Positions 1 to 20,717 of a stretch of 64,000 nt of DNA are shown here, piece after piece (the stretch's first letter is position 1; the number at the start of each line of letters is the position of its first letter). Source of the stretch: Candidatus Omnitrophota bacterium (GTDB taxonomy: Bacteria > Omnitrophota > Gorgyraeia > Aquiviventales > Aquiviventaceae); contig JACQHR010000032.1 in the NCBI GenBank assembly GCA_016198905.1, forward strand, positions 74,390 to 138,389, written 5' to 3'. The notes below the pieces were generated by a model. It had not been told where the DNA came from and searched no databases. It saw nothing but the letters and a program-made list of their open reading frames with translations. The position numbers and the translations under genes were made by a program.

Positions 1-323
1 ACGAGACACTGGTGAACCCGCAGGCGGACCTGCGCCGCGTGACGGAACAACTCTTGAGCCGGTTCTGGCTTGAGCCGACGCGGACCGAAGCCGAGGCGTG
101 GGGTGCTTGCCCATGGGAAGACGGGCTCGGGGCATTGAGCTATTCCATGGCATTTGCGCGACGGTATCGATGGAGAGATAGCGCCAAGGCATGGCTCGCA
201 GGGGAGCTGCCCTCCCATCACCGCGGGGCATGGCCGCACGGATCGCTGGTGCTCACGCCACAACCCCTTCGTCTAGCCGTGCGCCTGGCAACGGTTCTGT
301 CCTTGCGGAAGCCGCATGATTAG
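1..323 (+). CDS. 3' end of a gene entering from upstream (function unknown, partial)
   Basis: Frame is open from the window edge to TAG 321-323. It overlaps the next ATG (316) by 8 nt, as in a coupled operon. No motif recognised. Confidence 0.4.
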   Translation, partial: ETLVNPQADLRRVTEQLLSRFWLEPTRTEAEAWGACPWEDGLGALSYSMAFARRYRWRDSAKAWLAGELPSHHRGAWPHGSLVLTPQPLRLAVRLATVLSLRKPHD

Positions 324-1269
324 CGTCGCGGTCTGTACCTATAACCGCAGCGAAAGTCTGCGCGATACGCTGCGCTCCCTAAGCGCGCAGGTGATGACCG
401 CAGACGATTCGTTGGAAGTGATCGTGGTCGATAACAACAGCACCGATCGCACTGCGGCAGTCGTGCGCGAGGAAGCAGCGCGGATGCGCTGGCCGCTGCG
501 CTACGTGGTAGAGCCTCGGCAGGGCATTGCCTTTGCTCGGAATCTGGGGCTGCAGACCGCGCGCGGACACTACGTCGCGTTTATCGATGATGATGCCATC
601 GCCGATCCGCGGTGGATCGAGTCGCTGTCGCGCGGGATCGCCGACACCGGCGCGGACTTGATCGGCGGGCGGATCGACCCGTGCTGGCTAGCACCGCGGC
701 CGACGTGGCTGACCACGGAGTTGTGCGGTCCGATCACTGCGTTTGACTGCGGTCCGCAGCGGCACCGGTGCACGACGCGGTGCTCGCACGCCTTTCTGAC
801 GACGAATGTCGCCCTCAGGCGCGCGGCGGTTGGCGCGTACGGCCTGTTTGATGTTTCGCTGGGGCGGCGCGGGACGCGCTGGGTCGGAGGCGAGGACTTT
901 GAGCTGTTTCGTCGATGGCTGCGGCAGGGCGCGGCGATCGTGTATGAACCCTCGGCGCTGGTGCAGCACAAGGTGAGTCCGGAGCGGGTGACCCCCGCTT
1001 TCTACCGTCGCTGGTTTGAGGATATCGGTTACACCCAGGCGCATCAGCTTGAGGCAAAGTGGCACCACCGGCTGAGCGTCATGCCCGCCTGGCGCTGGAA
1101 GGCGCTGGCCCTTGCCGGCGCCCGCTACGCGCTGGCTCAAACGCTGGGCGCGCACGGCGCGGACCGGCGGCTGTGCGCCGAGTTGTGGTGGCGGTTTGAG
1201 CGGAGCTTCCTGCTCGAACGGTTGGATCACTGGAGAAGGCGAAAGAACTGCCGCTTCTCACAGGCGTAG
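316..1269 (+). CDS. Glycosyltransferase family 2 (GT-A fold)
   Basis: N-terminal ISVAVCTYNR, VVDNNSTDRT and AFIDDDA (DxD), the typical GT2 signature order. Confidence 0.9.
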   Translation: MISVAVCTYNRSESLRDTLRSLSAQVMTADDSLEVIVVDNNSTDRTAAVVREEAARMRWPLRYVVEPRQGIAFARNLGLQTARGHYVAFIDDDAIADPRWIESLSRGIADTGADLIGGRIDPCWLAPRPTWLTTELCGPITAFDCGPQRHRCTTRCSHAFLTTNVALRRAAVGAYGLFDVSLGRRGTRWVGGEDFELFRRWLRQGAAIVYEPSALVQHKVSPERVTPAFYRRWFEDIGYTQAHQLEAKWHHRLSVMPAWRWKALALAGARYALAQTLGAHGADRRLCAELWWRFERSFLLERLDHWRRRKNCRFSQA

Positions 1270-1272
1270 ATT

Positions 1273-1781
1273 CGTTTCACGTTTCAGGTTTCACGTTTCA
1301 CGTGACGGACGATGACAACCGTACAGCGATTTGAACAATTGGAAGCTTGGCAGAGAGCACGGGAACTTGCCCAAGAGGTTTATGCGATCACAGGGAAGGG
1401 TTCCTTTGCAAAGGATTTTATCCTCAGAGACCAAATTCGGCGAGCTGCGGTTTCGGTTGTCGCGAATATCGCAGAGGGATTTGAGCGCAGCGGCCGAGGT
1501 GAGTTCATCCAATTTCTTGCCGTGGCCAAGGGTTCAGTCGGAGAGTTGAGGTCGCATGTATACATTGCTCACGATCAGGGGTATCTCAGCAAGGCCGAGT
1601 TTGAGCGGTTAAGCGATCTCGCCATCCGGACCGCACAGTTGGTAGGCGGGCTGATGAATTATCTGAGAGGGTCTAGCATTAAAGGCACCAAGTTCAAGAA
1701 GGTTGTCGGACTGAGTGTTGTTTCCACGCGAGGCGACTTTGCCCAACGTGAAACCTGAAACGTGAAACGCGAAACGAAACG
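1273..1781 (+). repeat. E1: heptamer-armed palindromic cassette carrying a four-helix-bundle gene
   Basis: Left arm 1274-1304 is GTTTCAC GTTTCAG GTTTCAC GTTTCAC GTG. Right arm 1747-1781 is CGTGAAAC CTGAAAC GTGAAAC GCGAAAC GAAACG. 1273-1295 is a perfect 23-nt reverse complement of 1747-1769. The cassette starts 4 nt after the upstream TAG and ends at the ATG of the next GT2. Confidence 0.9.
1312..1758 (+). CDS. Four-helix-bundle protein (23S rRNA intervening-sequence protein / S23p family, TIGR02436-like)
   Basis: FEQLEAWQRARELAQEVY...RDQIRRAAVSVVANIAEGFERSG..EFIQFLAVAKGSVGELRSH matches the family hallmark (W-Q-A...ANIAEG...A.GS..E). The stop TGA lies inside the right arm of E1. Confidence 0.85.
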   Translation: MTTVQRFEQLEAWQRARELAQEVYAITGKGSFAKDFILRDQIRRAAVSVVANIAEGFERSGRGEFIQFLAVAKGSVGELRSHVYIAHDQGYLSKAEFERLSDLAIRTAQLVGGLMNYLRGSSIKGTKFKKVVGLSVVSTRGDFAQRET

Positions 1782-2732
1782 ATGAGCATGCCTGCACGTC
1801 CACTAGTAAGCGTGGTCATTCCAACGTTCAACCGCGCGGCGATGCTGCGCGAGGCGCTGGAGAGCGTCTTCCACCAAACGGTCAAGAGCTTCGAGGTGAT
1901 CGTGGTGGACGACGGCTCCACGGATGACACGTCCCGCGTCGTGAAAAGCTTCGCGCACGGCATCGTCTATCTGCGGCAAGAAAACCAAGGGGTCGCGGCG
2001 GCGCGCAATAGCGGCATCAAGGCGGCGAAGGGCCGGTACATCGCCTTTCTGGACTCGGATGACCTGTGGCTGCCGCATAAGCTGGAGCGGCAGATCGACT
2101 ACCTGCGAGCGCATCCGGACGTCGGCCTGCTGTACGCGCGCATGTGGTCCTACCGCACGGAGACACCCCAGGAGCGCCGCCTGGATCCGCACGTGGTGGC
2201 GCGGACATTTGCGGATCTGGTCAACGGCCCCAATGCCATCACGACCTCGACGGTTATGATGAGACGCGAATGTGTGCAGGTCGTGGGCCTGTTCAACCCG
2301 GCGCTGCGCGGGACCGAGGATCACGAGTTTTGGCTGCGGGTCGCGAGGCGGTTTTCCATCGCGTTTCTTGATGAACCGCTGGCCGAATACCGGCGCCACG
2401 GCAAGAGCATCAATGGCGATCCCATCGGCCTGTACGACGCCTACCGGAGGCTCTATGAGATCATCTGGCGAGAGTACCGCCGGGAGTTGCGCGATCCTCG
2501 CGCCGCCGAGCGGCAACTCGCCAAGTTCGAGTACCTCTGCGGCACCACGGCGCTGAAGCGCGGCGACCGTCGACGGGCGCTGAAGCTCATCCGCACGGCC
2601 TTAGCCCGTGATGCGGCGCTGGGGCAGCAGTTCGTGAAGAAAGACACGCCCTGGCACGTGAAAGTCTGGCTGCCGATCAAGCCCTACGCGGCGTTGACGG
2701 TGAGCGCCCTGCAGACGCTTGGGAGGAACTAA
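1782..2732 (+). CDS. Glycosyltransferase family 2
   Basis: VSVVIPTFNR, VVDDGSTDDT, AFLDSDD. The ATG directly abuts E1's right arm. Confidence 0.9.
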   Translation: MSMPARPLVSVVIPTFNRAAMLREALESVFHQTVKSFEVIVVDDGSTDDTSRVVKSFAHGIVYLRQENQGVAAARNSGIKAAKGRYIAFLDSDDLWLPHKLERQIDYLRAHPDVGLLYARMWSYRTETPQERRLDPHVVARTFADLVNGPNAITTSTVMMRRECVQVVGLFNPALRGTEDHEFWLRVARRFSIAFLDEPLAEYRRHGKSINGDPIGLYDAYRRLYEIIWREYRRELRDPRAAERQLAKFEYLCGTTALKRGDRRRALKLIRTALARDAALGQQFVKKDTPWHVKVWLPIKPYAALTVSALQTLGRN

Positions 2733-2740
2733 AGAAGTGA

Positions 2741-3175
2741 CTACGAGAGGACAAACGCGGACAGCAAATACACAAACGGCAACGCGGCCATCCGTCGCTG
2801 CAGGCGCTCATCAGCCGTGACGAAGGGGATGCCGAGTTCCTGAGCGAGGGCTGCGAAGCTGGCATCGTAGAAGGACGCATCGTACGCGTCGGCGAGCTCG
2901 GAGGCGAGCATAGCTTGAGGCAAGGTCAACGGATGAATCGCAACGTTCAGGCTGAAGAACTCAGTAAGAATATCCAACGCGGTACGCCGAGGCATCGGCG
3001 GCCGCAGGTAACGCAGAGCATTTCCCAGTTCGTAGAGACTCAGTGTGGGGACGTGCAGCGTCCGCTTACCGCCGGCGTGTTCGAGCAGGAGTCGTTCGGC
3101 GCGCTGAAACTCAGGCTCCCGTGGCTTGACGTAGCACTTGAGGATGACCGAGGTGTCGACTACGACGTCTTCCAT
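2741..3175 (-). CDS. vapC: PIN-domain toxin VapC
   Basis: MEDVVVDTSVILK (N-terminal acidic D), later YDASF and a C-terminal TAD motif. Overlaps the upstream antitoxin gene by 16 nt. Confidence 0.85.
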   Translation of the reverse strand: MEDVVVDTSVILKCYVKPREPEFQRAERLLLEHAGGKRTLHVPTLSLYELGNALRYLRPPMPRRTALDILTEFFSLNVAIHPLTLPQAMLASELADAYDASFYDASFAALAQELGIPFVTADERLQRRMAALPFVYLLSAFVLS

Positions 3176-3441
3176 GCAGAGCCATACCGGGTGTCTCGCA
3201 GCCGGCGGATGAGCGAAGCGCTCGTCTGGCCTTTAGGCAACCGGAGGTTCGCCCCCAGGATTCGCTTCGCAGCTTGCTGCATGGCCTTTCGAGCGCTCGG
3301 CAGGGGTGGGGTCACCCGAATCGCGACATATGTGCGAATCGCCTCACGCACCAACTCGCTGCGGCTGCGATGTTCCGCGCGGGCCAAGGCATCAACATCG
3401 TGCAAGAAGTTCCGAGGCAACGACACCATCACTTTGCTCAT
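3160..3441 (-). CDS. vapB: Ribbon-helix-helix (CopG/VapB-type) antitoxin
   Basis: MSKVMVSLPRNFLHDVDALARAEHRSRSELVREAIRTYV is an RHH fold pattern. AGGAGG lies about 7 nt upstream of this internal ATG (the track ORF begins earlier, at 3534). Confidence 0.75.
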   Translation of the reverse strand: MSKVMVSLPRNFLHDVDALARAEHRSRSELVREAIRTYVAIRVTPPLPSARKAMQQAAKRILGANLRLPKGQTSASLIRRLRDTRYGSAWKTS

Positions 3442-3523
3442 GAGCAGGTCCTCCTGTGACTGGATCAAGCGTACCATGGCAGGCAATCCAAAGGCAATAC
3501 AAAAGACATACACGACGGCTCGG

Positions 3524-3586
3524 CTGCCGATCAAACCGTATGCGGCGTTGACGGTGAGCGCGCTACAGGCGATAGGGAAGAACTGA
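3524..3586 (+). repeat. Orphan 63-nt copy of the GT2 3' end (duplicate of 2670-2732)
   Basis: Encodes LPIKPYAALTVSALQAIGKN* versus LPIKPYAALTVSALQTLGRN* at 2670-2732. Differences are 5 synonymous codon changes, 3 conservative replacements and a stop-to-stop change. Confidence 0.85.
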
Positions 3587-3608
3587 AATGAGAATAGTGG
3601 AGAGCCAG

Positions 3609-3872
3609 TTACTGAAGAAACCGATAGACGTCCTTGCGCGGGCCGACTTTCAAGAGGACGACCGCTCGGTCACGATCGAGGATGTCGTACAGGACGCGGT
3701 AGGCCCCGACGCGGATGCGCCAGCACATGACGCGGCCCTTCAGCTTCTTGCATCCGGGAGGACGAGGGTCATAACGCAGGTGTTCGATCGCTTCCCGCAA
3801 GGCAGGGACCACATGCGTAGGCAGGTTGTCGAGCTCGCGCTCAACGCGGCGAGGAGTGTGGACGACCCACAT
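3609..3872 (-). CDS. RelE/ParE-family type II toxin
   Basis: 87 aa. The pattern ...KKLKGRVMCWRIRVGAYRVLYDILDRDRAVVLLKVGPRKDVY is typical of RelE/ParE. The gene directly abuts the antitoxin gene. Confidence 0.8.
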   Translation of the reverse strand: MWVVHTPRRVERELDNLPTHVVPALREAIEHLRYDPRPPGCKKLKGRVMCWRIRVGAYRVLYDILDRDRAVVLLKVGPRKDVYRFLQ

Positions 3873-4145
3873 TCAGCGGCGGGAGGGCCTCAGCGCTTTG
3901 GAGCGACCGGCACGATAGTCGCGTCGCGCCTCGGCAACTTCTTGTGCGAGCTCCTCATCCGTTTCATCCAGGCGGTCTTCCAGGTCGCTCATGAGCTGCT
4001 CGTACAGTTCCATCGACAGCAGCGCGGCGACTGCGCGTCCGCTCTTTGTGACAAAACACGGCACATGTTCTTTATGCAGCGACTTCAGCACACTCGAAAA
4101 GTGGCTGCGCACATCACTCGCAGGCAGAATTTTGATCGTCATCAC
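3873..4145 (-). CDS. Phd/YefM-family antitoxin
   Basis: 90 aa. MMTIKILPASDVRSHFSSVLKSL..EHVPCFVTKSGRAVAALLSMELYEQL is a Phd/YefM N-domain. AGGAGGTGAG RBS lies upstream on the minus strand. Confidence 0.8.
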   Translation of the reverse strand: MMTIKILPASDVRSHFSSVLKSLHKEHVPCFVTKSGRAVAALLSMELYEQLMSDLEDRLDETDEELAQEVAEARRDYRAGRSKALRPSRR

Positions 4146-7953: not shown

Positions 7954-8933
7954 GCGAGCCGATCGTGAGCGTCGTCATCGCCACGCGCAACCGGGCCGCG
8001 ATGCTTAAAGAGGCCATCGCCAGCGTCGGCGCGCAGACGTATCAGGATTGGGAGCTCATCGTGGTGGATGACGGCTCGACCGATCAGACGAAGCGGGTCG
8101 CGCAGCAAGCGGCGAAGGACGATCCGCGCGTCCACTATCTTCGGCAGCCGGCCAGAGGCGGCGTGTCGAAAGCGCGCAATGCCGGCATCCACGCGGCGCG
8201 CGGGCGCTACATTGCGTTTCTCGATGACGATGACCAATTCGTTGCGGAGAAGCTCGCGACTCAAGTGGTGCACCTCGACCGTTCGCCCGAGGTGGGCTTC
8301 GTCTACGCGCAGAGCGAATGGGTGGATCGCCGCGGGACTTCGTTGGGAGTTCAGCCGACGGCGCCAGTGACTGATCTCAAGGGGCTGGTGGAGCACTGCG
8401 CGATCCCCCTGCAAACCGTCATGTGTCGTCGGGAACTGATCGAGCGGGTGGGCGGCTTCGATGAGCGGCTGTCGATCGGCGAAGACTACGACTTGTGGCT
8501 GCGGCTGGCGCGCATCACCCGGTTTGAGTTCGTCGCGCGTCCGCTGGTGCGCTACGGGGTGCATGGCGCCAATACGTGCAACGACAGCATCCGGCTCTAC
8601 GAGCAGCGGGCGATCATCCTGGCGCGCGTGCCGCTCGACCGTGCGCGGGGAATCACGTGGTGGTTCAAGCGCCGGCGCCTGGCGATCAACGCGTATCGGC
8701 TGGCGAGGCTGCACCACGAGGCGCGCGCTTTCGCGCAGGCGTCGGCGCATTTTGCCCGCGCGGTCGTCTACGACCCGATGGTCGGCCTGGCCATGGCCGA
8801 GCCGCGCCCTCGGGGGCTGGCGCGCCTGTGGGTGTCGCTGAAACCCTATCTGGCGATCGTGCTGCTCCTGATCGGGGTCAGTCCCCAAGCACGAAAAGTA
8901 GCGAGATCACCCGATTGGGGTCTGACCCCATGA
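7950..8933 (+). CDS. Glycosyltransferase family 2
   Basis: VSVVIATRNR, VVDDGSTDQT, AFLDDDD. ATGA start/stop overlap with the preceding gene. The track ORF's long N-terminal extension (from 7368) overlaps the previous GT2 out of frame. Confidence 0.9.
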   Translation: MSEPIVSVVIATRNRAAMLKEAIASVGAQTYQDWELIVVDDGSTDQTKRVAQQAAKDDPRVHYLRQPARGGVSKARNAGIHAARGRYIAFLDDDDQFVAEKLATQVVHLDRSPEVGFVYAQSEWVDRRGTSLGVQPTAPVTDLKGLVEHCAIPLQTVMCRRELIERVGGFDERLSIGEDYDLWLRLARITRFEFVARPLVRYGVHGANTCNDSIRLYEQRAIILARVPLDRARGITWWFKRRRLAINAYRLARLHHEARAFAQASAHFARAVVYDPMVGLAMAEPRPRGLARLWVSLKPYLAIVLLLIGVSPQARKVARSPDWGLTP

Positions 8934-11464
8934 GGATTGTGATTGTGGCACCAGAGGTGTTTCCGGTTCCACCGATCCGAGGCGGGGCGGTGGAGACCGT
9001 CATCGAGGAAATCTCCGCGCAGTTCCGTGACCACAAGGTAACCATTCTCGGCATTGCCGACGCGTCACTGCCGGTGCAAGAGACGAAGGAGCATCGGACA
9101 TATCGCCGTTGGAAGCGCACGGTCATTGATCGACTCTTGCTCTCGACGTGGAAGCTGCCGTTCAAACAGAGCAACTCGCCGTGGTACTACTGGCCCTACC
9201 AGCATTGGATCGCCAGGCAGGTGCAACGGCTGCGTCCCGACGTCGTGTGGGTGCACAGCCGCATCCAATTTGCGCCGGCGATTCGCCGCGCCGCCCCTCA
9301 CGCGCGGATGATCGTCAGCGTCCATCAACTGAGCACGCTGCGCGATGAGCGCGTCTGGCAGCAAGCGCGCGTCGCGTGTTGTGATGTGATCGCCGGTGTC
9401 AGCCAATTCATGATCGAGGCCATCGCTGCGCGGTATCCATGGACGCAACCCAAGACGCACGTGCTCTCAAACGGCGTTGACGTGACAGCCTATCAGCCGT
9501 GGTGGGCGCAGTCGGCCAGGCGCGAGCGGATGCGCCGCGAGCAGGGCTGGGGTGACGCGCCGGTGATCTTGTATGCCGGGCGGCTCGTCGAGCAAAAGGG
9601 CGTGCATGTGCTCGCCGATGCTTTCAAACAACTGGTAAGGGGTGAGGGGCGGGAGACAGGGGGCGCGGGATCCAACACGAAACCAATGCTGGTCATTGCC
9701 GGCGGCCACACGTACTCCGATGGGACAGAAACCGACTATATCAGGCAGTTGAAGCGCACGCTTGAGCCGCTGGGATCGCAGGTCGTCTGGCTGGGGTATC
9801 AACCGTCGAGCGCGCTGGTGAGCCTGTACGCGGCCAGCGACGTCGTCGTCGTCCCATCAATCAATCCGGAAGCGTTTTCCATGGTCACGGTTGAAGCGAT
9901 GGCCTCGGGTCTGCCGGTCGTTGCCTTCGCGCACGGCGGCCCAGCGGAGATCATTCGCCACGGCATCGATGGGTTCTTGGTGCCGGTCTCCCGCGGCGCG
10001 GAGGGTCTGGCCGAGGCGCTGCAAGCGTGCGTCAGCAACACCACCCTGCGGGAAGCCATCGGCCGCGAGGCCAGACGGACGGTAGAGGAGCGCTTTACGT
10101 GGCAGCGTGTGGCAGAGAGCTTCCTCAAATTGACTCAGGGACAAGGGACAGGGGACAGGGGGCGAGGGAATGCCCTTCCTACGCCCCGCGCCCCGCGCCC
10201 CGCGCCCCAGACACGCGCCGTCCCTATTCTTATTGCTGAGTCAGGATCAGGCTACGGAGGCAGCGCGAAATACCTCAGCGAGCTGGTGTCGCTGCTGGAT
10301 CGGCGACGCTTCCACGCGCAGGTGGTGGCGGCTGAAGAGGGGCCGTTCATTCGCAAGGTCAAAGAGCAGGGAGTGCCAGTAGCACTGAGGCCAAGTTGGA
10401 GATTCGCTTGGGGGCAGGGGGCGGGAGACGAGGGGCGGGGGAAGGGCCAGCACACAGCACTCAGCACGAACGTGAAACATGAAACGCGAAACGTGAAACG
10501 AACGTCGCATGTCCGGTTCGCGCTGGTTGCTGCTACACAGCTTTTGATCATGGTTCCAGCAATTGCCCTCTGGTTGAAGTGGCGGAGGATCCGGCTGGTG
10601 CATCTGAATAACGAGATCCTCTCGCACGTGCCGCTGGCGCTCGGAGCGAAACTCGCCGGCTGCCGCGTGGTGTGCCACCTGCACGGCTGGCGTCCGTTCA
10701 CGAGGCTGGAGCGCGCTGTGGCCGGTGTCGTTGATGAGTTCGTCTGCATTTCGGAGGCTGGCGCGCGGTACTTCGAATCGCAACTGCCGCATCGCCGGGT
10801 GGCCGCGATTCCCAACGGTATTCTGCTCAATGGTCAGTTGGACGGCCTTGACGTGAAACGAGCGCAGGTCCGTCGGCAGTTGGGGATCCAGCCCCATGAC
10901 GCGGTCATCGCCATCATCGGGCGCTTGGTGCCGTGGAAAGGCCAGGCAGTGTTCTTGAAGGCGTTGGCGGATGTCAGCCAGCGACACCCGGACGTGGTCG
11001 GCCTCATCGTGGGGCACGATGCCTCGCCAGGGCAGAGCTATCTGACACAGTTACAGTCGACTGCGCGTGAGCACGGCCTCGCTGAGCGTGGGCGCGTGCA
11101 CTTTGTCCCGTGGCTCGAGGACGTGTGGGGCATTTATGCCGCGGCGGACATCATCGTGCACGCTTCGACGCAGCCGGAGCCGTTCGGACTCGTGCTCATT
11201 GAAGCGATGGCGGCGGGCAAGCTCGTGATTGCCACGCGATCCGGTGGAGTCGTCGATATCGTCACGGATGGCCGGACAGGACTGCTGGTTGAGCCGGGCG
11301 ATCCGGATGGGCTGGCGCGCGCCATCACGCAGGTGGTGACTGATCCTTCGCGCGCCGCTGCGCTGGCTGAGGCCGGCCGGCAGCGCGCGCGAGACGTGTT
11401 CACCATGGAGCGCAACGCGCAGGCAGTCGCGCAGGTCTATCAGCGGCTGATGGTGTGCCGATGA
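8930..11464 (+). CDS. Double GT4 glycosyltransferase (two complete GT-B modules joined through element E3)
   Basis: Module 1: MRIVIVAPEVFPVPPIRGGAVE...VVPSINPEAFSMVTVEAMASGLPVVAF. Module 2: ILIAESGSGYGGSAKY...ASTQPEPFGLVLIEAMAAGKLVIATRSGG. ATGA overlap at 8930. Contains E2, E3 and E4 in frame. Confidence 0.85.
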   Translation: MRIVIVAPEVFPVPPIRGGAVETVIEEISAQFRDHKVTILGIADASLPVQETKEHRTYRRWKRTVIDRLLLSTWKLPFKQSNSPWYYWPYQHWIARQVQRLRPDVVWVHSRIQFAPAIRRAAPHARMIVSVHQLSTLRDERVWQQARVACCDVIAGVSQFMIEAIAARYPWTQPKTHVLSNGVDVTAYQPWWAQSARRERMRREQGWGDAPVILYAGRLVEQKGVHVLADAFKQLVRGEGRETGGAGSNTKPMLVIAGGHTYSDGTETDYIRQLKRTLEPLGSQVVWLGYQPSSALVSLYAASDVVVVPSINPEAFSMVTVEAMASGLPVVAFAHGGPAEIIRHGIDGFLVPVSRGAEGLAEALQACVSNTTLREAIGREARRTVEERFTWQRVAESFLKLTQGQGTGDRGRGNALPTPRAPRPAPQTRAVPILIAESGSGYGGSAKYLSELVSLLDRRRFHAQVVAAEEGPFIRKVKEQGVPVALRPSWRFAWGQGAGDEGRGKGQHTALSTNVKHETRNVKRTSHVRFALVAATQLLIMVPAIALWLKWRRIRLVHLNNEILSHVPLALGAKLAGCRVVCHLHGWRPFTRLERAVAGVVDEFVCISEAGARYFESQLPHRRVAAIPNGILLNGQLDGLDVKRAQVRRQLGIQPHDAVIAIIGRLVPWKGQAVFLKALADVSQRHPDVVGLIVGHDASPGQSYLTQLQSTAREHGLAERGRVHFVPWLEDVWGIYAAADIIVHASTQPEPFGLVLIEAMAAGKLVIATRSGGVVDIVTDGRTGLLVEPGDPDGLARAITQVVTDPSRAAALAEAGRQRARDVFTMERNAQAVAQVYQRLMVCR
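9637..9669 (+). repeat. E2: solo G-rich arm inside GT4 module 1
   Basis: AAGGGGTGAGGGGCGGGAGACAGGGGGCGCGGGA matches the left-arm consensus and is translated in frame as RGEGRETGGAG. No C-rich partner follows. Confidence 0.8.
10136..10208 (+). repeat. E3: G-arm/C-arm palindromic element fusing two GT4 cistrons
   Basis: Left CAGGGACAAGGGACAGGGGACAGGGGGCGAGGG, loop AATGCCCTTCCTA, right CGCCCCG x3 + CGCCCC. Translated as GQGTGDRGRGNALPTPRAPRPAP with no stop. Confidence 0.85.
10410..10504 (+). repeat. E4: chimeric three-block heptamer element inside GT4 module 2
   Basis: G-arm GGGGGCAGGGGGCGGGAGACGAGGGGCGGGGGAAGGG, then CAGCACA CAGCACT CAGCACG, then AACGTGA AACATGA AACGCGA AACGTGA AACGAAC (the E1-type GTGAAAC arm). 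In frame as GQGAGDEGRGKGQHTALSTNVKHETRNVKRT. Confidence 0.85.
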
Positions 11465-12957
11465 GCGTCGTCAACCAAACCGCAGCCCGCGCAGGCGCAC
11501 GCGCCATACCCCCGCTGCACACCGTGGTCGACCGCCGCATCTGGACGTTTGTCGCGCTCATCGGATTCCTCGGCTGGCTCGTCATGAAGGAAATCACGCT
11601 GCCCTCCGGTCTCATGGCGGCTTGTGCGGGGCTGGGATTGCTCGGGCTGTTCATGGTCAGCGTCCAGCGGCCGGAGCTGTCGCTGTACGTGCTCGTGGCA
11701 TACCTGCCGTTCAGCCGGCTCCTCGTCGGAGATTTCGGCACCGAAGCGTACGCCTTCAACCTCACGAACATCCTGACGCTGTGGGTCCTTAGCGCCTATG
11801 TGCTGCGTTGCATGTCGCAAGGCCGGCAGCCCTTCCAATCCGCCCCGATGAGTCGCCTCGTCCTGGCGTTCTGCGCGCTGAGCGGATTCTCGCTGCTGCA
11901 GGGAGGCTTTGCGTACGGCTCCTGGTACTTCTGGCATTACCTCACTCCGCTGAAGCAGTGGCTGACGCCGATCTTCTTTTACTTTCTGGCGCTCTGGGTG
12001 GTGCGGGATCGGAAAGTTCTCAAGACGGTCGTGGTGCTCATGATGGTCGCCGTCACGGTGGTAGCGCTCATGGCGATCCGGGACTATCTGAACAACTCGG
12101 GCAGCAGCCTCGAGAAATCCCGGGTCGGCGGGATCGCCGAGCAGCCCAACACGCTGGGGGCGTTCTTCGTGTACTACATGTTCTTGTTCGCCGGCTTCTT
12201 CCTGACCTATCGCAAGAAGTTCAAGGTGTGGGGGCTGCTCGTTCCCTTTCTGCTGTGTTTCCGCGGCATCATGGTGACATTTTCCCGCGGGGCCTATTTC
12301 GGATTCGCCGCCGGCGGCCTCGGAGCGTGTTGGCACCGCAATAAGGCGCTGTTTGTGGTCGCCGCCGCGCTGTTATGGTTTGCCGTCATGAATCCCTGGA
12401 TGCTGCCGAAGGGGATTCGGTATCGGATGGGGCAAACCGTCGTCAGCCACGGCAGCGACAACGCACCGGGCGACGCGCCGATCGAGGATACCTTGGAAGC
12501 CAGCGCCGGAAACCGCGTGCGCATTTGGCGGGCGACCATCGAGATGATCAAGGACCATCCGTGGTGGGGGGTGGGCTACGGGGCGTTTCCCGCCTACATC
12601 GGGGTGTACACCGGCGGGCACTTCGAGGCGGTCGATGCCCATAACACGTATTTGCTCCTTGCCGCCGAGTTGGGGATCCCAATACTGGTCGTGTTCTGCG
12701 TGGTGATCCTCGTGGCGTGGTATCACACCAGGCGACTCTACCTGGGGACCCACGACTTCGCTATGAAGGCCATCACCCTAGGTTTCCTCGCCGGGCTGGA
12801 AGGGCTCATTGTGGTGAACATGTTCGGCTCGCGGATGGATGACCAGGCGGTCAGCAGCTACTTTTGGATCTTGTGCGGCCTCATCATGCGCGGCGTGTTG
12901 ATCGAGCGGGAAGAGATGTTGGGGGCATGGGGCGCGAGACGTGGGGCGAGGGCATAG
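11461..12957 (+). CDS. O-antigen ligase / Wzy-like polytopic membrane protein (paralog 1)
   Basis: About 10 or more hydrophobic segments. Central GIMVTFSRGAYFGFA and periplasmic-loop ...HNTYLLLAAELGI (Wzy_C-like). ATGA overlap with the upstream gene. The C-terminal tail LGAWGARRGARA is encoded by the E5 left arm. Confidence 0.8.
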   Translation: MSVVNQTAARAGARAIPPLHTVVDRRIWTFVALIGFLGWLVMKEITLPSGLMAACAGLGLLGLFMVSVQRPELSLYVLVAYLPFSRLLVGDFGTEAYAFNLTNILTLWVLSAYVLRCMSQGRQPFQSAPMSRLVLAFCALSGFSLLQGGFAYGSWYFWHYLTPLKQWLTPIFFYFLALWVVRDRKVLKTVVVLMMVAVTVVALMAIRDYLNNSGSSLEKSRVGGIAEQPNTLGAFFVYYMFLFAGFFLTYRKKFKVWGLLVPFLLCFRGIMVTFSRGAYFGFAAGGLGACWHRNKALFVVAAALLWFAVMNPWMLPKGIRYRMGQTVVSHGSDNAPGDAPIEDTLEASAGNRVRIWRATIEMIKDHPWWGVGYGAFPAYIGVYTGGHFEAVDAHNTYLLLAAELGIPILVVFCVVILVAWYHTRRLYLGTHDFAMKAITLGFLAGLEGLIVVNMFGSRMDDQAVSSYFWILCGLIMRGVLIEREEMLGAWGARRGARA

Positions 12958-12997
12958 TCATATGCCAACCATACCCCCACCCCCCGCCCCCCGCCCC
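12919..12997 (+). repeat. E5: palindromic element with upstream stop and downstream start codon in its loop
   Basis: Left TTGGGGGCATGGGGCGCGAGACGTGGGGCGAGGG, loop CATAGTCATATGCCAACCATA (TAG 12955-57, ATG 12962), right CCCCCACCCCCCGCCCCCCGCCCC. Confidence 0.85.
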
Positions 12998-14344
12998 ATA
13001 CTTGGTTGTATCTTGAGTCAATTCCCGCGATACGATGAGGCGTTCATTCTGCGCGAGCTTGTCGCGTTGTCGCAGGACTCGCCGCGGCTCGTGATCTTCT
13101 CGCTGCGTCCGTGCCGCGATCGCGTGATCCACGAGCAGGCGAAAGCCCTGCAGCCGCAGACAGTCTACGCGCCCTTCGTGTGGTCATGGCAGGTCTGGCG
13201 CAGCCACGCGCATGTCCTTCAGCACAATCTGAGAGGATATCTTCGCGCGCTTGGATGGATCATCAGCCGGCATTGGCGGCATCCGGTGATTCTGGTGAAG
13301 ACGCTGGCATTTTTCCCAAAGACCGTGCACTTCGCGAGGCTGGCCCAACAGCGGGGCGTCACGCATGTGCATGCGTTTTGGGCGACGTACCCGGCGGCGG
13401 CGGCGATGATCATGCGTGAGCTGACCGGCATCCCATTTAGCATGTCCGGCCACGCGCATGATATTCACACGATCAATCCGACGCTGACCGAGAAGATGCA
13501 GCATGCGCGCTTTGTCGTGACCTGCACGCAGGCGAATCGTGACTATTTGTTATCGTTAGTCAATAGTCATGGGGCAAGGGGCGGGAGACAGGGGGCAGGG
13601 ACAACCAAAACTATTGTGGAAGGTTTTTCCACGCCCCCCGTCCCCCGCCCCCCGTCCCATGTTATGGTGAGCTACCACGGCGTCGATCTTTCCCGCTTCG
13701 CCGCGCGGCCGAAGGATCACGGGCCGGTGTGCCGGATCCTCGCGGTGGGCAGCCTGTTGCCGTGCAAAGGGTATGAGACGCTGATTGAGGGCTGCACGCG
13801 GCTGCGTGAGCGCGGCGCGGCGTTTCACGTGACCATCGCCGGCGGCGGGCCGCTCGAACGCGCGCTGCGCCAGCGGATCGCGAAGCATGCGCTTACGCAG
13901 CAGGTGACGATGACGGGCTTTGTCAGCCAGGAAACGGTCGCAGCGCTCTATCAGCAAGCGCACCTCGTGATCCTGCCCTTGGTGTCCAAGATCCATTGGG
14001 GCATCCCGAACGTCCTGATCGAAGCGCTGGCTACGAAGACGCCGGTCATCTGCTGCGATCTGCCGTCGATGCGCGAGCTGGTGGTGCACGGCGAAAGCGG
14101 CTGGATCATCCCTGAGAACGACCCCAACGCGTTAGCGACTTCAATCGTGACGCTCTGGAAAGACGCCGCGTTGCGGCAGCGGATCGCCGACGCAGGGTAT
14201 CAGCGCGTGGTCGAGCGGTTTTCGCTGGAGGAAACTGGACGAAAGCTACGAGAGATCTTTAGTCAGGGGCAGGGGGCGGGAGACAGGGGGCAGGTGCAGA
14301 CCGATTTTCCCGCGCCCCGCGCCCCGCGCCCCAAAGTTCCTTAA
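12962..14344 (+). CDS. Glycosyltransferase family 4
   Basis: GT-B C-domain: ...ILPLVSKIHWGIPNVLIEALATKTPVICCDLPSMRELV. Start ATG lies in the E5 loop (alternative GTG 12941). Contains E6 in frame, and E7 forms its C-terminal tail. Confidence 0.8.
   Translation: MPTIPPPPAPRPILGCILSQFPRYDEAFILRELVALSQDSPRLVIFSLRPCRDRVIHEQAKALQPQTVYAPFVWSWQVWRSHAHVLQHNLRGYLRALGWIISRHWRHPVILVKTLAFFPKTVHFARLAQQRGVTHVHAFWATYPAAAAMIMRELTGIPFSMSGHAHDIHTINPTLTEKMQHARFVVTCTQANRDYLLSLVNSHGARGGRQGAGTTKTIVEGFSTPPVPRPPSHVMVSYHGVDLSRFAARPKDHGPVCRILAVGSLLPCKGYETLIEGCTRLRERGAAFHVTIAGGGPLERALRQRIAKHALTQQVTMTGFVSQETVAALYQQAHLVILPLVSKIHWGIPNVLIEALATKTPVICCDLPSMRELVVHGESGWIIPENDPNALATSIVTLWKDAALRQRIADAGYQRVVERFSLEETGRKLREIFSQGQGAGDRGQVQTDFPAPRAPRPKVP
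13568..13661 (+). repeat. E6: palindromic element in frame inside GT4
   Basis: Left CATGGGGCAAGGGGCGGGAGACAGGGGGCAGGG, 30-nt loop, right ACGCCCCCCGTCCCCCGCCCCCCGTCCCATG. Translated as HGARGGRQGAGTTKTIVEGFSTPPVPRPPSH. Confidence 0.85.
14264..14332 (+). repeat. E7: palindromic element forming the C-terminal tail of GT4
   Basis: Left CAGGGGCAGGGGGCGGGAGACAGGGGGCAGG, loop TGCAGACCGATTTTCC, right CGCGCCCCGCGCCCCGCGCCCC. Translated as GQGAGDRGQVQTDFPAPRAPRP, followed by the TAATG junction at 14342-14346. Confidence 0.85.
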
Positions 14345-16495: not shown

Positions 16496-16540
16496 AGCAA
16501 TTGAGACCTAACGCGAAGCGAACGTCACGTTGGGGCGGCG

Positions 16541-18025
16541 ATGAGGAGTGACGCGGTCTTGCCGGCAGCGATGGTGAGGCGCCTGCTGCCCGAGGTGGAT
16601 GAGCGGGCGTGGATGTTCGTGCTCGCGATCGGCGCCTTCGCCGTGTTGGGGCTCAAAGAGATGCCGTTATCGGCACCCCTGGTCTTGGGTCTCTTCGCTG
16701 CCGGTGTGGTCGGGTTGATTGCGGCCGGCTGGCTGGGACCCGAAGCACCGCTGTACGCGCTCATCGCGTACTTGCCCTTCAGCGGGCTGCTGGCCGGTGG
16801 CGCGTCCATCCCGTTTCTCAACCTGACGAATTTGCTTATCCTACTCATCGTGGTCAGCCACATTTGGCGGCAGCGTCGGAATGAGCTGCAGGTCTTGACG
16901 TCTGCGCCGATGAATGCGGTCATCGCGCTTTTCGCCGCGCTGGCGGTTCTGTCGTGGATGCGCGCCGGATGGATGTATGGCGGCTGGTACGCGTCGACGC
17001 ATGCCGTGGCTCTCTTGCGTTGGCTGCGCCCGATGGCGTTCTACTTCGTGGCGCTGTGGGCCGTGCGGGATGCGCGCGCACTAAAGACCGTGCTTGCGCT
17101 CATCGCGGTGGCGGTGACGGTCGTCGCGCTGATGGCGCTGTGGGAGTATCTCGATCGCGCCGGCAGCACCATCGAGCGCTCGCGCGTGCAGGGAATCGCC
17201 GGCGAAGCCAACCGCATGGGGGCGTTCTTCGTGACGTACATGTTCCTGTTCCTTGGCTATTTCTTCGTGACACCGCTGCGTCGCTACGGGTGGCTGATGC
17301 TCGTGCCGTTTCTCTTGTGCGTGCGCGGCATCATGGTGACCTTCTCGCGCGGGGCGCATGTGGCGTTCGCTGCGGGGGTGCTCGTCGCTTGTTGGATGCG
17401 CAGCAAGTGGCTCTTCGTGGTTGCGGCCGCCGCCGCGGCATTCATCATCACGCATCCGGCCCTGCTGCCGGGAGGATTTCGCACCCGCATCGAGCAGACC
17501 ATTCGTCCTGGTCAGCGACTCGACCTGGACGCCGGCACCTCGCAGGAGCTCTCGCGGCAATTGGAGCCCAGCGTCGGGCGACGGGTTGAAGCATGGAACG
17601 GCGGCTTGGCGATGGTGCGCGCGCATCCCTGGGTTGGCGTCGGGTTCGGAGGATTCCGGCGGTTCATTCCCCACTACACGCAGGGCCGAGTGAGCTCCAT
17701 GGCGGCGCACAACACGTACCTGTGGCTGGCGTCGGAGATGGGCATCCCCACGCTGCTGGTGTTTCTGCTGTTTCTCGACCTGCTGGCGTACCACACGGTG
17801 TGGCTGTATCGGCACAGCCAGGATGTCTGGCTGCGGGCTCTTGGCCTTGGCGTGTTGGCCGGCGCCGCGGCGCTGTCTGTGGCCAACGGTTTCAGCGAGT
17901 GCCTCGATTCCTCCGAGGAGGTCGTGGGTTATTTCTGGATCCTCTGCGCGCTCGTCATGAGAGGCGTCCTGCTTGAAAAACAACAGGCTGGGGCAAGGGG
18001 CGTGAGACAGGGGGCGGGGGAATAG
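16541..18025 (+). CDS. O-antigen ligase / Wzy-like polytopic membrane protein (paralog 2)
   Basis: Collinear with 11461..12957 (e.g. GIMVTFSRGAHVAFAAG, AHNTYLWLASEMGIP). The tail GARGVRQGAGE is encoded by the E11 left arm. Confidence 0.8.
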   Translation: MRSDAVLPAAMVRRLLPEVDERAWMFVLAIGAFAVLGLKEMPLSAPLVLGLFAAGVVGLIAAGWLGPEAPLYALIAYLPFSGLLAGGASIPFLNLTNLLILLIVVSHIWRQRRNELQVLTSAPMNAVIALFAALAVLSWMRAGWMYGGWYASTHAVALLRWLRPMAFYFVALWAVRDARALKTVLALIAVAVTVVALMALWEYLDRAGSTIERSRVQGIAGEANRMGAFFVTYMFLFLGYFFVTPLRRYGWLMLVPFLLCVRGIMVTFSRGAHVAFAAGVLVACWMRSKWLFVVAAAAAAFIITHPALLPGGFRTRIEQTIRPGQRLDLDAGTSQELSRQLEPSVGRRVEAWNGGLAMVRAHPWVGVGFGGFRRFIPHYTQGRVSSMAAHNTYLWLASEMGIPTLLVFLLFLDLLAYHTVWLYRHSQDVWLRALGLGVLAGAAALSVANGFSECLDSSEEVVGYFWILCALVMRGVLLEKQQAGARGVRQGAGE

Positions 18026-18437
18026 CAATGCCTATGACGTCTGCAGCGATCACAACCTTCAAAGACCTTCGCGTCTGGCAGGAAGGCATCCAGTTGGTCA
18101 AGGAGATCTATGCCCTCTGCGTCAAATTGCCGAAGGAAGAACTCTACGGCTTAGCGAGTCAGATGAAGCGCGCGGCGGTGTCGGTTCCATCCAACGTAGC
18201 AGAAGGCCATGCTCGAAAACACCGCGCCGAGTACAGACAGTACGTGTATATTGCGATCGGCTCGCTTGCGGAACTCGAGACGCACGTGCTCATTGCTAAG
18301 GAGTTGAACTTGTCTAATGGTGATGAGCTGACCCCGGTCCTTACACGCATTGACCGTTTGCGAGGGATGTTGCTGACGCTCGGGAGACGACTCGGATGAC
18401 GCCGTCCCCTCGCCCCTCGCCCCTCGCCCCTCGCCCC
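17989..18437 (+). repeat. E11: G-arm/C-arm palindromic cassette carrying a second four-helix-bundle gene
   Basis: Left TGGGGCAAGGGGCGTGAGACAGGGGGCGGGGG (17989-18020). Right (CCCCTCG)x4 + CCCCA (18406-18437). About 25 of 32 positions are complementary by hand alignment. Confidence 0.9.
18028..18399 (+). CDS. Four-helix-bundle protein (23S rRNA intervening-sequence protein family), second, divergent copy
   Basis: FKDLRVWQEGIQLVKEIY...QMKRAAVSVPSNVAEGHARKH..EYRQYVYIAIGSLAELETH. Starts 2 nt after the ligase TAG and has an ATGA overlap with the next GT4. Confidence 0.85.
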   Translation: MPMTSAAITTFKDLRVWQEGIQLVKEIYALCVKLPKEELYGLASQMKRAAVSVPSNVAEGHARKHRAEYRQYVYIAIGSLAELETHVLIAKELNLSNGDELTPVLTRIDRLRGMLLTLGRRLG

Positions 18438-20717
18438 ATTCGCGTGATGTTCGTGATCTGGTCGCTCGGCCTCGGCGGAGCGGAGCAGGCGGTGATCCGG
18501 CTGGCCGCGGGCCTTCGGCGCGAAGGGTTCGAGCCGTTGATCTGCTGTCTCAACGAGCCGGGTCCCTTCGCTGTGCAAGCGCAGGCCGCCGGCGTGCCCG
18601 TCGTGGCGCTGCACAAACGGTGGCGCTATGACGCGCGCGTGCTCTGGCGCTTGATGCGGTTGATGCGGCAGTGGCATCCGGACGTCGTGCACACGCATCT
18701 GTGGGGCGGCAACGCGTGGGGGCGGACGGCGGCCTGGCTGGTGGGTGTTCCGGTCATCGTCACGAGCGAGCGGAATCTGGATCCTTGGAAACGCTGGTAC
18801 TATTTTGTGATCGACCGCGTGCTCGCAGCGCGGACCACGACGTTGCTGGCCGTCTCCGAGTCCGTGCGGGCGTTCTACGAGCAGCACGGGGTCGGCCGCG
18901 GCCGCTGGCAAGTCTGCTACAACGGCGTCGATATCGCCGACGTAACACCCCGGCAGCGAGGAGCCGTGTTCGCGCAACTGGGCGCGCAGCATGGCGAGCC
19001 GGTCGTCGGCTTCATCGGACGCTTGGCTTCGGCAAAGGCTCCGGATGTGTTCGTCGAGGCGGTCGCACAGGCGCGCCGAACACTCCCTTCGCTGAAAGCG
19101 CTCATCGTCGGCGACGGGCCGCTGCGCAGCGAGGTTGAAGCCTTGGCGCGTCGATTGGGATTGGATGGGCATCTCGTGGTGACCGGCGTGCGCGAGGATA
19201 TCCCGGAGCTGCTGGCGGGGATGGACGCGCTGATGGTGTCGTCCGAGCGCGAGGGGCTCTCCATGGCGATGTTGGAGGCCATGGCGGCAGGAGTCCCGGT
19301 TATCGCGACTCGAGTAGGAGGCACTCCTGAACTCATCGAGCCGGGGATGACCGGACTGCTTGCGCCTCCAGGCGCGCCCGACGCATTGGCGCGCCAGTTG
19401 GTGGCACTCCTGACCAATCCCGCGCACGCGCAGGCCATTCGCGATGCGGCCCGCGCGCGAGTGGCGAAGGATTTTTCCATGCAGCGCGTGGTGGCGACGC
19501 ATGCAGCAGTGTACCGCCGCGGCCTCAAGCAGGCCAACCGTGCAGGACTCAGTGATCGCGTCAAAGAGGCGGCGGCATCGCTTCCCATCGCTCACCGCGC
19601 TCGCCTCCGCGTCATGCATGTCATCGACGATCTCGGACTCGGAGGCGCGCAGCGGCAGCTCGTGGAGCTCGTCAAGGCGTTCCCGCGGGATCGCTATGAG
19701 CTGCACGTTGTGAGTCTCTCGACGACGAAGACGGACTACGCGGAGGCGCTCCACGCAGCGGAGATTCGCCTGACGCAAATCCCGCAGGCCGGCAAATGGG
19801 ATGGCCGTTGTTTTTCGACGCTCTCCACGCTGATCAAAACCGAGAAGCCTTCCATCGTCCACACGTGGCTCTTTACCGCCGACCTCTATGGCCGCATGGC
19901 GGCGTGGGTGGCGCATGTGCCGGTCATCATCAGCGCGGTGCGCAGTGTGGAGCCGGATAAGCCCGCGCACTACGTCGTGGTGGATCGCGTCCTGCGCAAC
20001 ATCACCAGTGCCTTCACCGTCAATGCGCGCGCGATTGGCGAGGTGCTGACGGCGCGCGAGCATGTGCCGACGGAGAAGATTCATACGATCTATAACGGGC
20101 TCGATCTGCGCGCCCTGGATCCATCCCGCGTGAATGGAGCGATTCGGCGCGCCATCGCCGTCGGCGCCGACGTCCCCCTGATCGGGATCGTCGGGCGTCT
20201 AGCGCCGGTGAAGGATCACGCCACGTTTCTGCGCGCGGCAGTGCGCGTGCATCGTGAAGCGCCACAGGCGCGGTTTCTCATCGTCGGCAACGGTTTGCTT
20301 CACGGCGAGCTCGAGCAGTTGAGCCAATCATTGGGCCTGAGCGATGTCGTTCGCTTTCTCGAGAGCCAATCCAACGTAGCCGAGGTGTTCGCCGCGCTCG
20401 ATGTCGTCGTCGTGTCCTCCCTCTATGAAGGCTGCTGCAACGTGATCCTCGAAGCGATGGCGATGGGCAAGCCCGTGATCGCCACAGCCGTCGGGGGCAA
20501 TCCTGAGCTCATCAGCGACGGGCAAACCGGGCTGCTCGTGCCCGTGGGCGATGATGCGAAGCTGGCCGAGGCGATGGTGAGCCTGCTGCGTGATCCGCAG
20601 CGCGCGCAGGCGATGGGCCGCTCGGGGCGAGCGCGCGTGGAGTGCGACTTCGCCATCGAGCGGATGGTCGTCGCAACCGATCGCGTCTATCAGAAACTGT
20701 TGAGTCGCGCCCCATGA
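18396..20717 (+). CDS. Double GT4 glycosyltransferase (natural tandem fusion, no element at the joint)
   Basis: Module 1: IRVMFVIWSLGLGGAEQAVIRLAAGL...SSEREGLSMAMLEAMAAGVPVIATRVGG. Module 2: LRVMHVIDDLGLGGAQRQL...SSLYEGCCNVILEAMAMGKPVIATAVGG. The N-terminal MTPSPRPSPLAPRP is the E11 right arm (alternative ATG 18447). Confidence 0.85.
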   Translation: MTPSPRPSPLAPRPIRVMFVIWSLGLGGAEQAVIRLAAGLRREGFEPLICCLNEPGPFAVQAQAAGVPVVALHKRWRYDARVLWRLMRLMRQWHPDVVHTHLWGGNAWGRTAAWLVGVPVIVTSERNLDPWKRWYYFVIDRVLAARTTTLLAVSESVRAFYEQHGVGRGRWQVCYNGVDIADVTPRQRGAVFAQLGAQHGEPVVGFIGRLASAKAPDVFVEAVAQARRTLPSLKALIVGDGPLRSEVEALARRLGLDGHLVVTGVREDIPELLAGMDALMVSSEREGLSMAMLEAMAAGVPVIATRVGGTPELIEPGMTGLLAPPGAPDALARQLVALLTNPAHAQAIRDAARARVAKDFSMQRVVATHAAVYRRGLKQANRAGLSDRVKEAAASLPIAHRARLRVMHVIDDLGLGGAQRQLVELVKAFPRDRYELHVVSLSTTKTDYAEALHAAEIRLTQIPQAGKWDGRCFSTLSTLIKTEKPSIVHTWLFTADLYGRMAAWVAHVPVIISAVRSVEPDKPAHYVVVDRVLRNITSAFTVNARAIGEVLTAREHVPTEKIHTIYNGLDLRALDPSRVNGAIRRAIAVGADVPLIGIVGRLAPVKDHATFLRAAVRVHREAPQARFLIVGNGLLHGELEQLSQSLGLSDVVRFLESQSNVAEVFAALDVVVVSSLYEGCCNVILEAMAMGKPVIATAVGGNPELISDGQTGLLVPVGDDAKLAEAMVSLLRDPQRAQAMGRSGRARVECDFAIERMVVATDRVYQKLLSRAP

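Follow-up and report, generated by a model that had tools for sequence, protein, structure and literature searches.

We analysed a 64-kb window (the whole stretch of 64,000 nucleotides under study, from a Candidatus Omnitrophota bacterium) in which a small gene cassette, here called E1, lies between two genes of the glycosyltransferase family GT2, GT2-A and GT2-B. E1 consists of one open reading frame (ORF) for a four-helix-bundle protein of the family known from 23S rRNA intervening sequences (IVSs), bracketed by two inverted arrays of heptamers (Table 1). Both neighbours share the strand of the E1 ORF. The left array begins 4 nt after the stop codon of GT2-A, the right array covers the stop codon (1756-1758) of the E1 ORF together with the four sense codons before it, and on the right side degenerate heptamer units continue to 1781, touching the start codon of GT2-B with no Shine-Dalgarno sequence in between. 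Independent assemblies of two sequencing runs (L001 and L002) each recovered the protein in this context.

Table 1. Positions of E1, its neighbouring genes and the other heptamer elements of the window
Feature	Position	Strand	Remarks
Upstream cistron GT2-A	316..1269	+	PF00535, E=4.3e-30; stop TAG 1267-1269
E1 left arm	1273..1303	+	CGTTTCA x4.4; perfectly paired part 1273-1297
Spacer, left arm to ATG	1304..1311	+	8 nt, without well-placed Shine-Dalgarno sequence; GGA only 2 nt from ATG
Four-helix-bundle gene, 148 aa	1312..1758	+	PF05635 / TIGR02436 match
E1 right arm	1745..1781	+	AACGTGA x4.6; perfectly paired part 1745-1769; degenerate units to next ATG
Downstream cistron GT2-B	1782..2732	+	PF00535, E=3.1e-40
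Second cassette	17989..18438	+	G-rich arm 17989-18020, four-helix-bundle ORF 18028-18399, CCCCTCG x4.6 arm 18406-18438
Chimeric element	10411..10500	+	G-rich left arm 10411-10447, CAGCACA x3, E1-type right-arm array 10469-10500 (AACGTGAAAC...)
ORF-less short-loop hairpins	10137-10208, 12927-12999, 13568-13661, 14261-14332, 14568-14658, 15234-15332, 16422-16500		G-rich and C-rich heptamer arms

The two arms of E1 form a perfect inverted repeat, complementary at 25 of 25 nt, which can be extended to 33 nt (1271-1303 and 1746-1778) at 91% complementarity with three mismatches. Both are tandem heptamer arrays, the right one running from 1745 to 1776, and the single variant unit of E1 (CAGG) is mirrored in register on the opposite arm. 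The left-arm unit, a GTTTCA core plus one variable base, fits the consensus of the E1 subfamily, G-T-T-[T/C]-[C/A]-N-[A/G], and the unit GTTTCAC/GTGAAAC holds only single G residues and no G-tracts. At up to two mismatches, the motif GTTTCACGTTTCA occurs 10 times in the window, compared with 1.0 expected, and none of 100 shuffles reached 10; the window holds 12 arrays of period 7, none of periods 5, 6 or 8, and one of period 9. The full complementarity and a motif excess far beyond the shuffles speak strongly against chance similarity of the arms. The terminal stem was present in both the minimum-free-energy and the centroid fold of a 529-nt transcript segment (z = -2.9). An earlier note on this DNA had described a cassette with an exact 23-bp stem (1273-1295 and 1747-1769) of GTTTCAC/GTGAAAC units and an ORF of the S23p/23S IVS family in the loop; the cassette started 4 nt after the upstream TAG, ended at the downstream ATG and was wedged between two GT2 cistrons. 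The placement, the unit and both GT2 assignments hold, and the stem is real and was understated.

The ORF matched PF05635 over profile positions 1-103 of 106 (E=1.9e-33, 115.3 bits, cut-off 33.8) and TIGR02436 with E=2.4e-31 (108.2 bits, cut-off 24); judged by these profiles, as the earlier note had supposed, it is a member of that family. The protein also matches the solved pentamer XCC0516 (PDB 2gsc, 2gsc_A) with E=1.4e-14. It carries the R-x3-S-x3-N-x2-E-G motif as RAAVSVVANIAEG, and S48, N52, E55 and G56 are invariant in a family alignment that includes it; a conserved R-x3-S-x3-N-x2-E motif has been described for the family (PMC3936711). It scores under the cut-offs of the subfamily models NF008911 and NF008912. 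A kinship of the family with the HEPN superfamily was considered and dropped, as it is not mentioned in a survey of HEPN proteins (PMC3710099).

A search of the plus strand between 1270 and 1790 returned no terminator-like site, and the sole promoter-like match in that interval is weak (9 of 12 positions) and lies at the start of the ORF (1312-1339). An Rfam scan of the window found no rRNA, an Rfam search at E1 gave no match even at E<=1, and a PADLOC search for defence systems gave no match for E1.

The architecture of E1 recurs widely. A scan of one genome per species yielded 80 loci whose proteins are 47-67% identical to that of E1, from Nitrospirota, Acidobacteriota, Desulfobacterota, Verrucomicrobiota, Planctomycetota, Bacteroidota, Chloroflexota and other phyla. 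An ORF was counted as flanked if its inverted repeat scored at least 12, with random placements in the same loci as controls. By this measure 63 of 79 testable loci of the E1 subfamily are flanked, compared with 4 of 390 random placements; for a second subfamily, that of the protein encoded at 18028-18399 of the window, the figures are 61 of 70 metagenome loci and 0 of 168 controls. The inverted-array layout is therefore found around a total of about 125 loci from two subfamilies and many bacterial phyla.

Heptamers make up the arms almost throughout the E1-subfamily loci. The unit itself varies from locus to locus (GTTTCGA, GTCCAAN, GTTCAAN, GGTTTCT, GTTACGG and others) while the two arms within a locus match, and the units of the second subfamily are quite different (GTCGTTN, AGTTTTC, GTATATC, GGGGCTG). 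In 540 kb of loci plus the window we counted 150 arrays of period 7, compared with 0-12 for each of the periods 5, 6 and 8-11. Complementary array pairs are spaced 400-550 nt apart in 35 of 55 cases, and a minor class lies 7-100 nt apart. The arms are typically 27-30 nt long (about four units), with a median complementarity of 91%. At the variable positions of the heptamers the arms pair with a frequency of 0.76; when the order of units in the right arm was shuffled and the best register chosen anew after each shuffle, the value fell to 0.57 +/- 0.02 (maximum 0.61 in 200 shuffles). Thus, the arms are true mirror images rather than merely arrays of the same unit. The spacer between left arm and ATG has a median of 39 nt in the E1 subfamily, with GGAGG-type sites in the relatives inspected, and the median gap between stop codon and right arm is 11 nt. 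In cassettes of the GTCCAAN type (L036, L045, L050, L067 and L068) this spacer shares a conserved stretch that includes TCACCCTCAT, and in some of them TTGACC-like hexamers stand before it; unlike E1 with its 8-nt spacer, such cassettes might carry an internal promoter or other signal. A search for conserved 23S rRNA motifs found none in any of the 80 related genome loci. We found no description that links inverted heptamer arrays to four-helix-bundle genes outside the Coxiella IVS in open-access full text, the only literature covered, so that an earlier description is possible. We regard the class, and the link between IVS proteins and heptamer repeats, as the new finding; within the class the E1 locus is ordinary.

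The cassettes are placed as E1 is. With neighbour strands assigned by a longest-ORF heuristic, both neighbours are co-oriented with the cassette at 49 of 63 loci of the E1 subfamily and at 37 of 48 of the second, and the upstream neighbour is co-oriented at 57 of 60 E1-subfamily loci. In the E1 subfamily the distance from the upstream stop to the left arm is usually no more than about 15 nt, and that from the right arm to the next start no more than about 20 nt; the corresponding medians in the second subfamily are 18 and 7 nt. The operons that host the cassettes are unrelated and include a sugar-binding protein/ABC ATPase pair, an arginine/ornithine decarboxylase-permease pair, queA-tgt and pilB-pilC. 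Published tables contain loci of the same geometry but do not remark on it: a supplementary table places a GGGAATC array directly between bccP (XCC0517) and XCC0516 in Xanthomonas (PMC4692102), and in Flavobacterium columnare gmk and nadD enclose a four-helix-bundle gene, the spacers being about 35 nt long (PMC5524665). Members of the PF05635 family also occur inside cas operons (PMC3936711). Among cultured strains, annotated Nostoc plasmids offer two examples: in L168 a four-helix-bundle gene with co-oriented neighbours is flanked on either side by complementary arrays of short units (roughly 6-7 nt), and in L167 such a gene has a heptamer array downstream only.

Some cassettes are old residents of their operons. 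In Pyrinomonadaceae, five genomes carry one at the same orthologous sugar-ABC junction, and there the four-helix-bundle protein diverges in step with its flanking proteins: the four-helix-bundle proteins are 74% identical in one lineage (flanking proteins, 89/81%), 68-73% in the other (82-84/78-81%) and 54-61% between lineages (61-67/70-75%). The heptamer differs by lineage, GTTTCGA in one and GTCCAAN in the other, each on both arms. Nonsynonymous divergence (dN) of the four-helix-bundle gene is far below synonymous divergence (dS), at 0.034/0.167 in one pair and with dN of 0.15-0.30 at saturated dS in others. The E1-subfamily protein is under purifying selection. The hexamer core persists within lineages that have saturated synonymous sites, which argues for a constraint on the sequence of the arms in addition to one on pairing.

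The composition of the gene differs from that of its hosts. GC content at third codon positions (GC3) is 0.54 in the E1 ORF, compared with 0.80-0.83 in the flanking genes, and in 43 of 45 loci from the set L003-L082 the four-helix-bundle ORF falls below its operon neighbours in GC3 (mean difference -0.165, regression slope 0.75); the deficit persists even where the cassette looks vertically inherited. Related Omnitrophica clusters (L083, L085 and L086) share the order Wzt, GT4, an Asn-synthase-like gene, GT2-A, GT2-X and GT2-B; GT2-A of the window has 60-66% identity with the GT2 that holds the corresponding position in these clusters, and GT2-B has 61-70% identity with their third GT2. The second, GT2-X, is missing from the window, with E1 in its place. 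After the orthologous GT2-A, L083 has a spacer of 16 nt and L085 one of 11 nt, both with a Shine-Dalgarno sequence and no cassette. In L086 a solo array of AGTTACG type follows the GT2-A stop (2554-2600), and a decayed cassette with a truncated four-helix-bundle ORF (71 aa) between GAAGGCA and GCAGAAN arrays precedes GT2-B (3582-3899). Together, the empty junctions and the remains in L086 indicate that E1 is an accessory insertion in a repeatedly colonised cluster. The exact boundaries of the insertion are unreadable because the nearest clusters are only 60-66% identical and differ in GT2-X content. We speculate that GT2-X was lost from the window by recombination between such arrays.

The closest known systems are the ORF-bearing 23S IVSs of Leptospira and of Coxiella burnetii (helix 45). 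The Coxiella IVS has a 28-bp terminal stem with three GACAGAT heptamers upstream of an S23p ORF and is excised by RNase III with a cut at the first heptamer repeat; its heptamer copy number differs among strains (PMC4990558). E1 resembles it in having a long terminal stem (25-33 bp), a 5' arm of tandem heptamers (CGTTTCA x4.4) and, in the loop, a PF05635-family ORF of about 400-450 nt with a poor Shine-Dalgarno sequence, most likely co-transcribed with the host RNA. The shared stem, heptamers and four-helix-bundle ORF bear out the parallel with ORF-bearing 23S IVSs drawn by the earlier note, and make it closer than claimed. The host RNA is 23S rRNA in Coxiella, whereas for E1, with a GT2 gene on either side, it is a polycistronic mRNA. 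E1 lacks the location in rRNA (helix 25 or 45) that defines a 23S IVS and so does not count as one, although it shares every other feature tested. The Coxiella ORF is decaying and probably untranslated, in contrast to the purifying selection seen in the E1 subfamily, and RNase III excision has been demonstrated there, whereas for E1 we infer it from the length and perfection of the duplex. Stand-alone PF05635/TIGR02436 proteins (XCC0516, 2gsc; a BT protein, 2rld; and Avd of diversity-generating retroelements) belong to the same sequence family, and we found no paper in the open-access literature that ties them to flanking inverted heptamer arrays or operon junctions. In the 1-7 kb around E1, the part of the window screened for this, no reverse transcriptase and no pair of template and variable repeats of the kind that accompanies Avd was seen; the only retroelement signal seen in the window is a group II intron RNA domain at 36498-36612.

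On balance we think it probable that in E1 a widespread type of cassette, IVS-like in kind and foreign to this genome, is lodged in a polysaccharide-biosynthesis mRNA and co-transcribed with it. Such a cassette comprises a PF05635 gene bracketed by two inverted arrays of about four heptamers, each a six-base core plus one free base, in a short intercistronic spacer. E1, which has no convincing promoter of its own, would be transcribed by read-through from the GT2 operon, and its arms would pair in the transcript into a helix of 25-33 bp that loops out the 440-nt ORF and brings the upstream stop and the downstream start codon to the base of the stem. A perfect RNA duplex as long as 25 bp is an expected substrate of RNase III. 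From this we suppose that the stem forms in vivo and that RNase III would cut it in the E1 mRNA, separating the two GT2 cistrons; a function for the four-helix-bundle protein in this scheme is likewise supposed. In an intercistronic spacer, as at the tip of an rRNA helix, a break can stay unligated and leave coding sequence unharmed.

The earlier note had proposed that E1 acts as an mRNA intervening sequence. The same-strand gene cluster, the lack of a terminator and the roughly 125 similar loci speak for that reading; its RNA-only form has lost ground, and several observations weigh against it. A helix selected as RNA would be expected to tolerate G.U pairs, but the mismatches in 124 stems show no wobble signature (94 of the G:T type and 95 of the A:C type, p=1.0; 61 and 51 in the E1 subfamily). 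In E1 the right arm includes the stop codon and a mere 8 nt separate the left arm from the ATG, so that pairing or cleavage would hinder expression of the released mRNA. The related hairpins of the window are translated in frame, and excision there would destroy the message; moreover, the antisense strand of the G-rich hairpins (12915-13005, 15195-15340 and others) folds markedly better than the sense strand (e.g., -65.3 vs -44.3 kcal/mol in one and -74.7 vs -51.1 kcal/mol in another), a consequence of A.C mismatches in the sense strand. Selection may have favoured the weaker structure in the translated strand. The tight abutment of E1 to its neighbours follows trivially from insertion into a short spacer, and the counts of co-oriented neighbours depend on the ORF heuristic. 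Recognition of the arrays by a protein is also plausible, with the pentameric cargo protein the obvious candidate.

Since the mismatches in the arms show no wobble bias, an origin of the symmetry at the level of DNA stays a serious rival, albeit one we consider rather unlikely. Here the arms would serve a cassette that moves or recombines as its termini or as its sites of recombination, their symmetry kept by such DNA processes as fold-back copying or arm conversion; the RNA stem would be a by-product and the ORF-less hairpins non-autonomous derivatives. Besides the symmetric mismatch types, this would account for the fixed polarity of the arms, of which the 5' one is G+T-rich at 56 vs 4 loci in the second subfamily and at 41 vs 20 in the E1 subfamily, and for the hexamer core kept despite saturated synonymous sites, which points to sequence-specific recognition and not to pairing alone. 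The ORF-less hairpins that share their heptamer with a neighbouring cassette (in L050, L043, L016 and the window), the chimeric array at 10411-10500 and the decayed cassette of L086 agree with it, as do the presence and absence of the cassette among related clusters, the AT-shifted GC3 typical of mobile genes and the 50-67% identity of relatives across many phyla. Other results count against it. The cassette encodes no transposase or recombinase, the outer 12-nt flanks share words at control level only and so give no sign of target-site duplication, and identical copies at several sites were not found: the protein P0117, present on many contigs, occupied one genomic context on all 24 examined, which argues against recent mobility, and the window contains a single partial extra copy of E1, of its right arm only. 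Relatives are absent from 2.9 M viral contigs (IMG/VR) and 50,697 INPHARED phage records and occur in 27 of 72,556 plasmids, mostly cyanobacterial megaplasmids. We therefore rejected a terminal-inverted-repeat transposon or miniature inverted-repeat transposable element, despite the inverted repeats, and also phage or plasmid carriage; these results argue against a conventionally active mobile element. The cassette has further been kept at one orthologous site over long divergence, and extrusion of a cruciform from duplex DNA would be improbable for arms 450 bp apart.

It is improbable, in our estimate, that E1 is a control device of the host, in which the stem hides the ribosome-binding region of GT2-B until it is opened by ribosomes that end at the upstream stop or translate the four-helix-bundle ORF, or which stabilises transcript ends or varies expression through heptamer slippage. 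The lack of a Shine-Dalgarno sequence before ATG 1782, the 4-nt distance from the upstream stop and the position of the ORF's own stop (inside the right arm in E1, a median of 11 nt from it in the subfamily) would suit such a device, as would long-term retention at one operon junction, the copy-number variation of the Coxiella heptamers (PMC4990558) and the clustering of heptamer elements, at least 10 of them, within a single surface-polysaccharide locus of the window. However, the host operons are functionally unrelated, with no common regulatory need apparent, and relatives manage with a spacer of 11-16 nt; nor would the device account for the invariable choice of a four-helix-bundle gene as cargo and the purifying selection on it, for the foreign composition or for the period of seven. 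That the arrangement is chance or an assembly artefact we consider next to negligible: the genome is assembled from a metagenome and repeats can mislead assemblers, but the two independent sequencing runs agree, the arms pair at every one of 25 positions, the motif excess exceeds all shuffles and the architecture is found at about 125 independent loci.

Other heptamer repeats invite a comparison with E1. The GGGAATC repeats of Xanthomonas and the short tandemly repeated repetitive (STRR) sequences of cyanobacteria (GGGGA[C/T]T) are 7-nt tandem units, preferably in about four copies, mostly between co-oriented ORFs and near the upstream one, often as inverted pairs, of which there are 70-75 per Xanthomonas genome (PMC4692102). 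The E1 arms are likewise tandem heptamers in about four copies between co-oriented ORFs. Those arrays have been read as formers of G-quadruplexes and no cargo gene has been reported for them, in contrast to E1; as the E1 unit lacks G-tracts, the G-quadruplex is not the common denominator. The Rickettsia palindromic elements of Ogata et al. (2000) are reportedly palindromic repeats inserted in frame in coding genes and translated, as are the ORF-less hairpins of the window; they have neither heptamers nor an ORF, and E1 itself is intercistronic. Integron cassettes resemble E1 in being promoterless single-ORF units on read-through transcripts with sites defined by symmetry more than by sequence, and the 7-bp integron core, GTTRRRY / RYYYAAC, shares GTT...AAC with the heptamer of the E1 subfamily. 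E1 differs in lying outside any cassette array and in having tandem arrays on both sides instead of one downstream attC, and cassettes of its type are scattered in housekeeping operons. Among the genes examined around E1, to which this screen of the window was confined, there was no integron-type integrase or attI.

A broader proposal, which we advance tentatively and think possible rather than likely, is that PF05635 genes and inverted heptamer arrays form one large and hitherto unrecognised superfamily living in transcribed RNA, in which the arrays are recognised in trans by the pentamer. The superfamily would take the form of rRNA IVSs with an ORF, of cassettes at operon junctions and of ORF-less hairpins (the Xanthomonas GGGAATC pairs, STRR sequences and in-frame inserts), and the pentamer might guide or block RNase III or promote the spread of the element. 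To our knowledge, the 23S IVS proteins, with thousands of annotated genes and a solved pentameric structure, have no known function. If true, the proposal would tie together two puzzles, the role of these proteins and the excess of heptanucleotides in some bacterial genomes (STRR, GGGAATC). If one type of element occupies rRNA helices, operon spacers and, without its ORF, coding frames, the rRNA IVSs would be no more than the conspicuous part of a widespread class with effects on operon transcripts, on breaks in assemblies and on the sequences of proteins. Cultured hosts in which this could be tested are available: Xanthomonas campestris (bccP-XCC0516), Nostoc and Flavobacterium columnare (gmk-4HB-nadD, where 4HB is the four-helix-bundle gene).

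The remaining heptamer elements of the window are concentrated in the same polysaccharide cluster. The protein of the second cassette is 34% identical to that of E1; this cassette sits between a Wzy-like gene and a GT4 gene, and the stop of its ORF overlaps the next annotated ATG. In the chimeric element the E1-type array is about 85% identical to the E1 right arm, the two ends are not complementary, and the whole lies in frame within a GT4 domain, a structure that suggests recombination between arrays of different cassettes. The ORF-less hairpins have arms of 71-84% complementarity and all lie within 6.5 kb of one another in the cluster. Several are read through in frame (e.g., as the peptide QGQGAGDRG...PRAPRP), and one fuses two GT4 domains into an ORF of 962 aa (8576-11464). 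In the GT4 ORF at 12941-14344, the hairpin at 13568-13661 encodes about 30 residues (ARGGRQGAGTTKTIVEGFSTPPVPRPPS) that are absent from five of seven aligned homologues, and alignments to homologues are interrupted at residues 209 and 237 of the query; a hairpin (14261-14332) also encodes the C-terminal tail, and one homologue (P0256) has other inserts that resemble translated repeats. Far from this cluster, a solo perfect array of four GCGTGGG units occupies 27271-27298, with no complementary partner found nearby.

The genes in the 1-7 kb around E1 encode glycosyltransferases, toxin-antitoxin modules, a cupin, a methyltransferase and a GT4 protein. The minus strand after GT2-B (2733-4145) carries two toxin-antitoxin modules, one of a PIN (2741-3175) and an RHH gene (3160-3534) and the other of a ParE (3609-3872) and a Phd/YefM gene (3873-4145); on either side of the PIN/RHH pair lies one copy of a direct repeat, about 65 nt long, in which the 3' end of GT2-B is duplicated (2668-2732 and 3523-3586). 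The group II intron signal at 36498-36612 (plus strand) comprises domains D1-D4 (Rfam RF02001, 44 bits, E=1.3e-5) and is followed by no long plus-strand ORF; the intron may be ORF-less or fragmentary.

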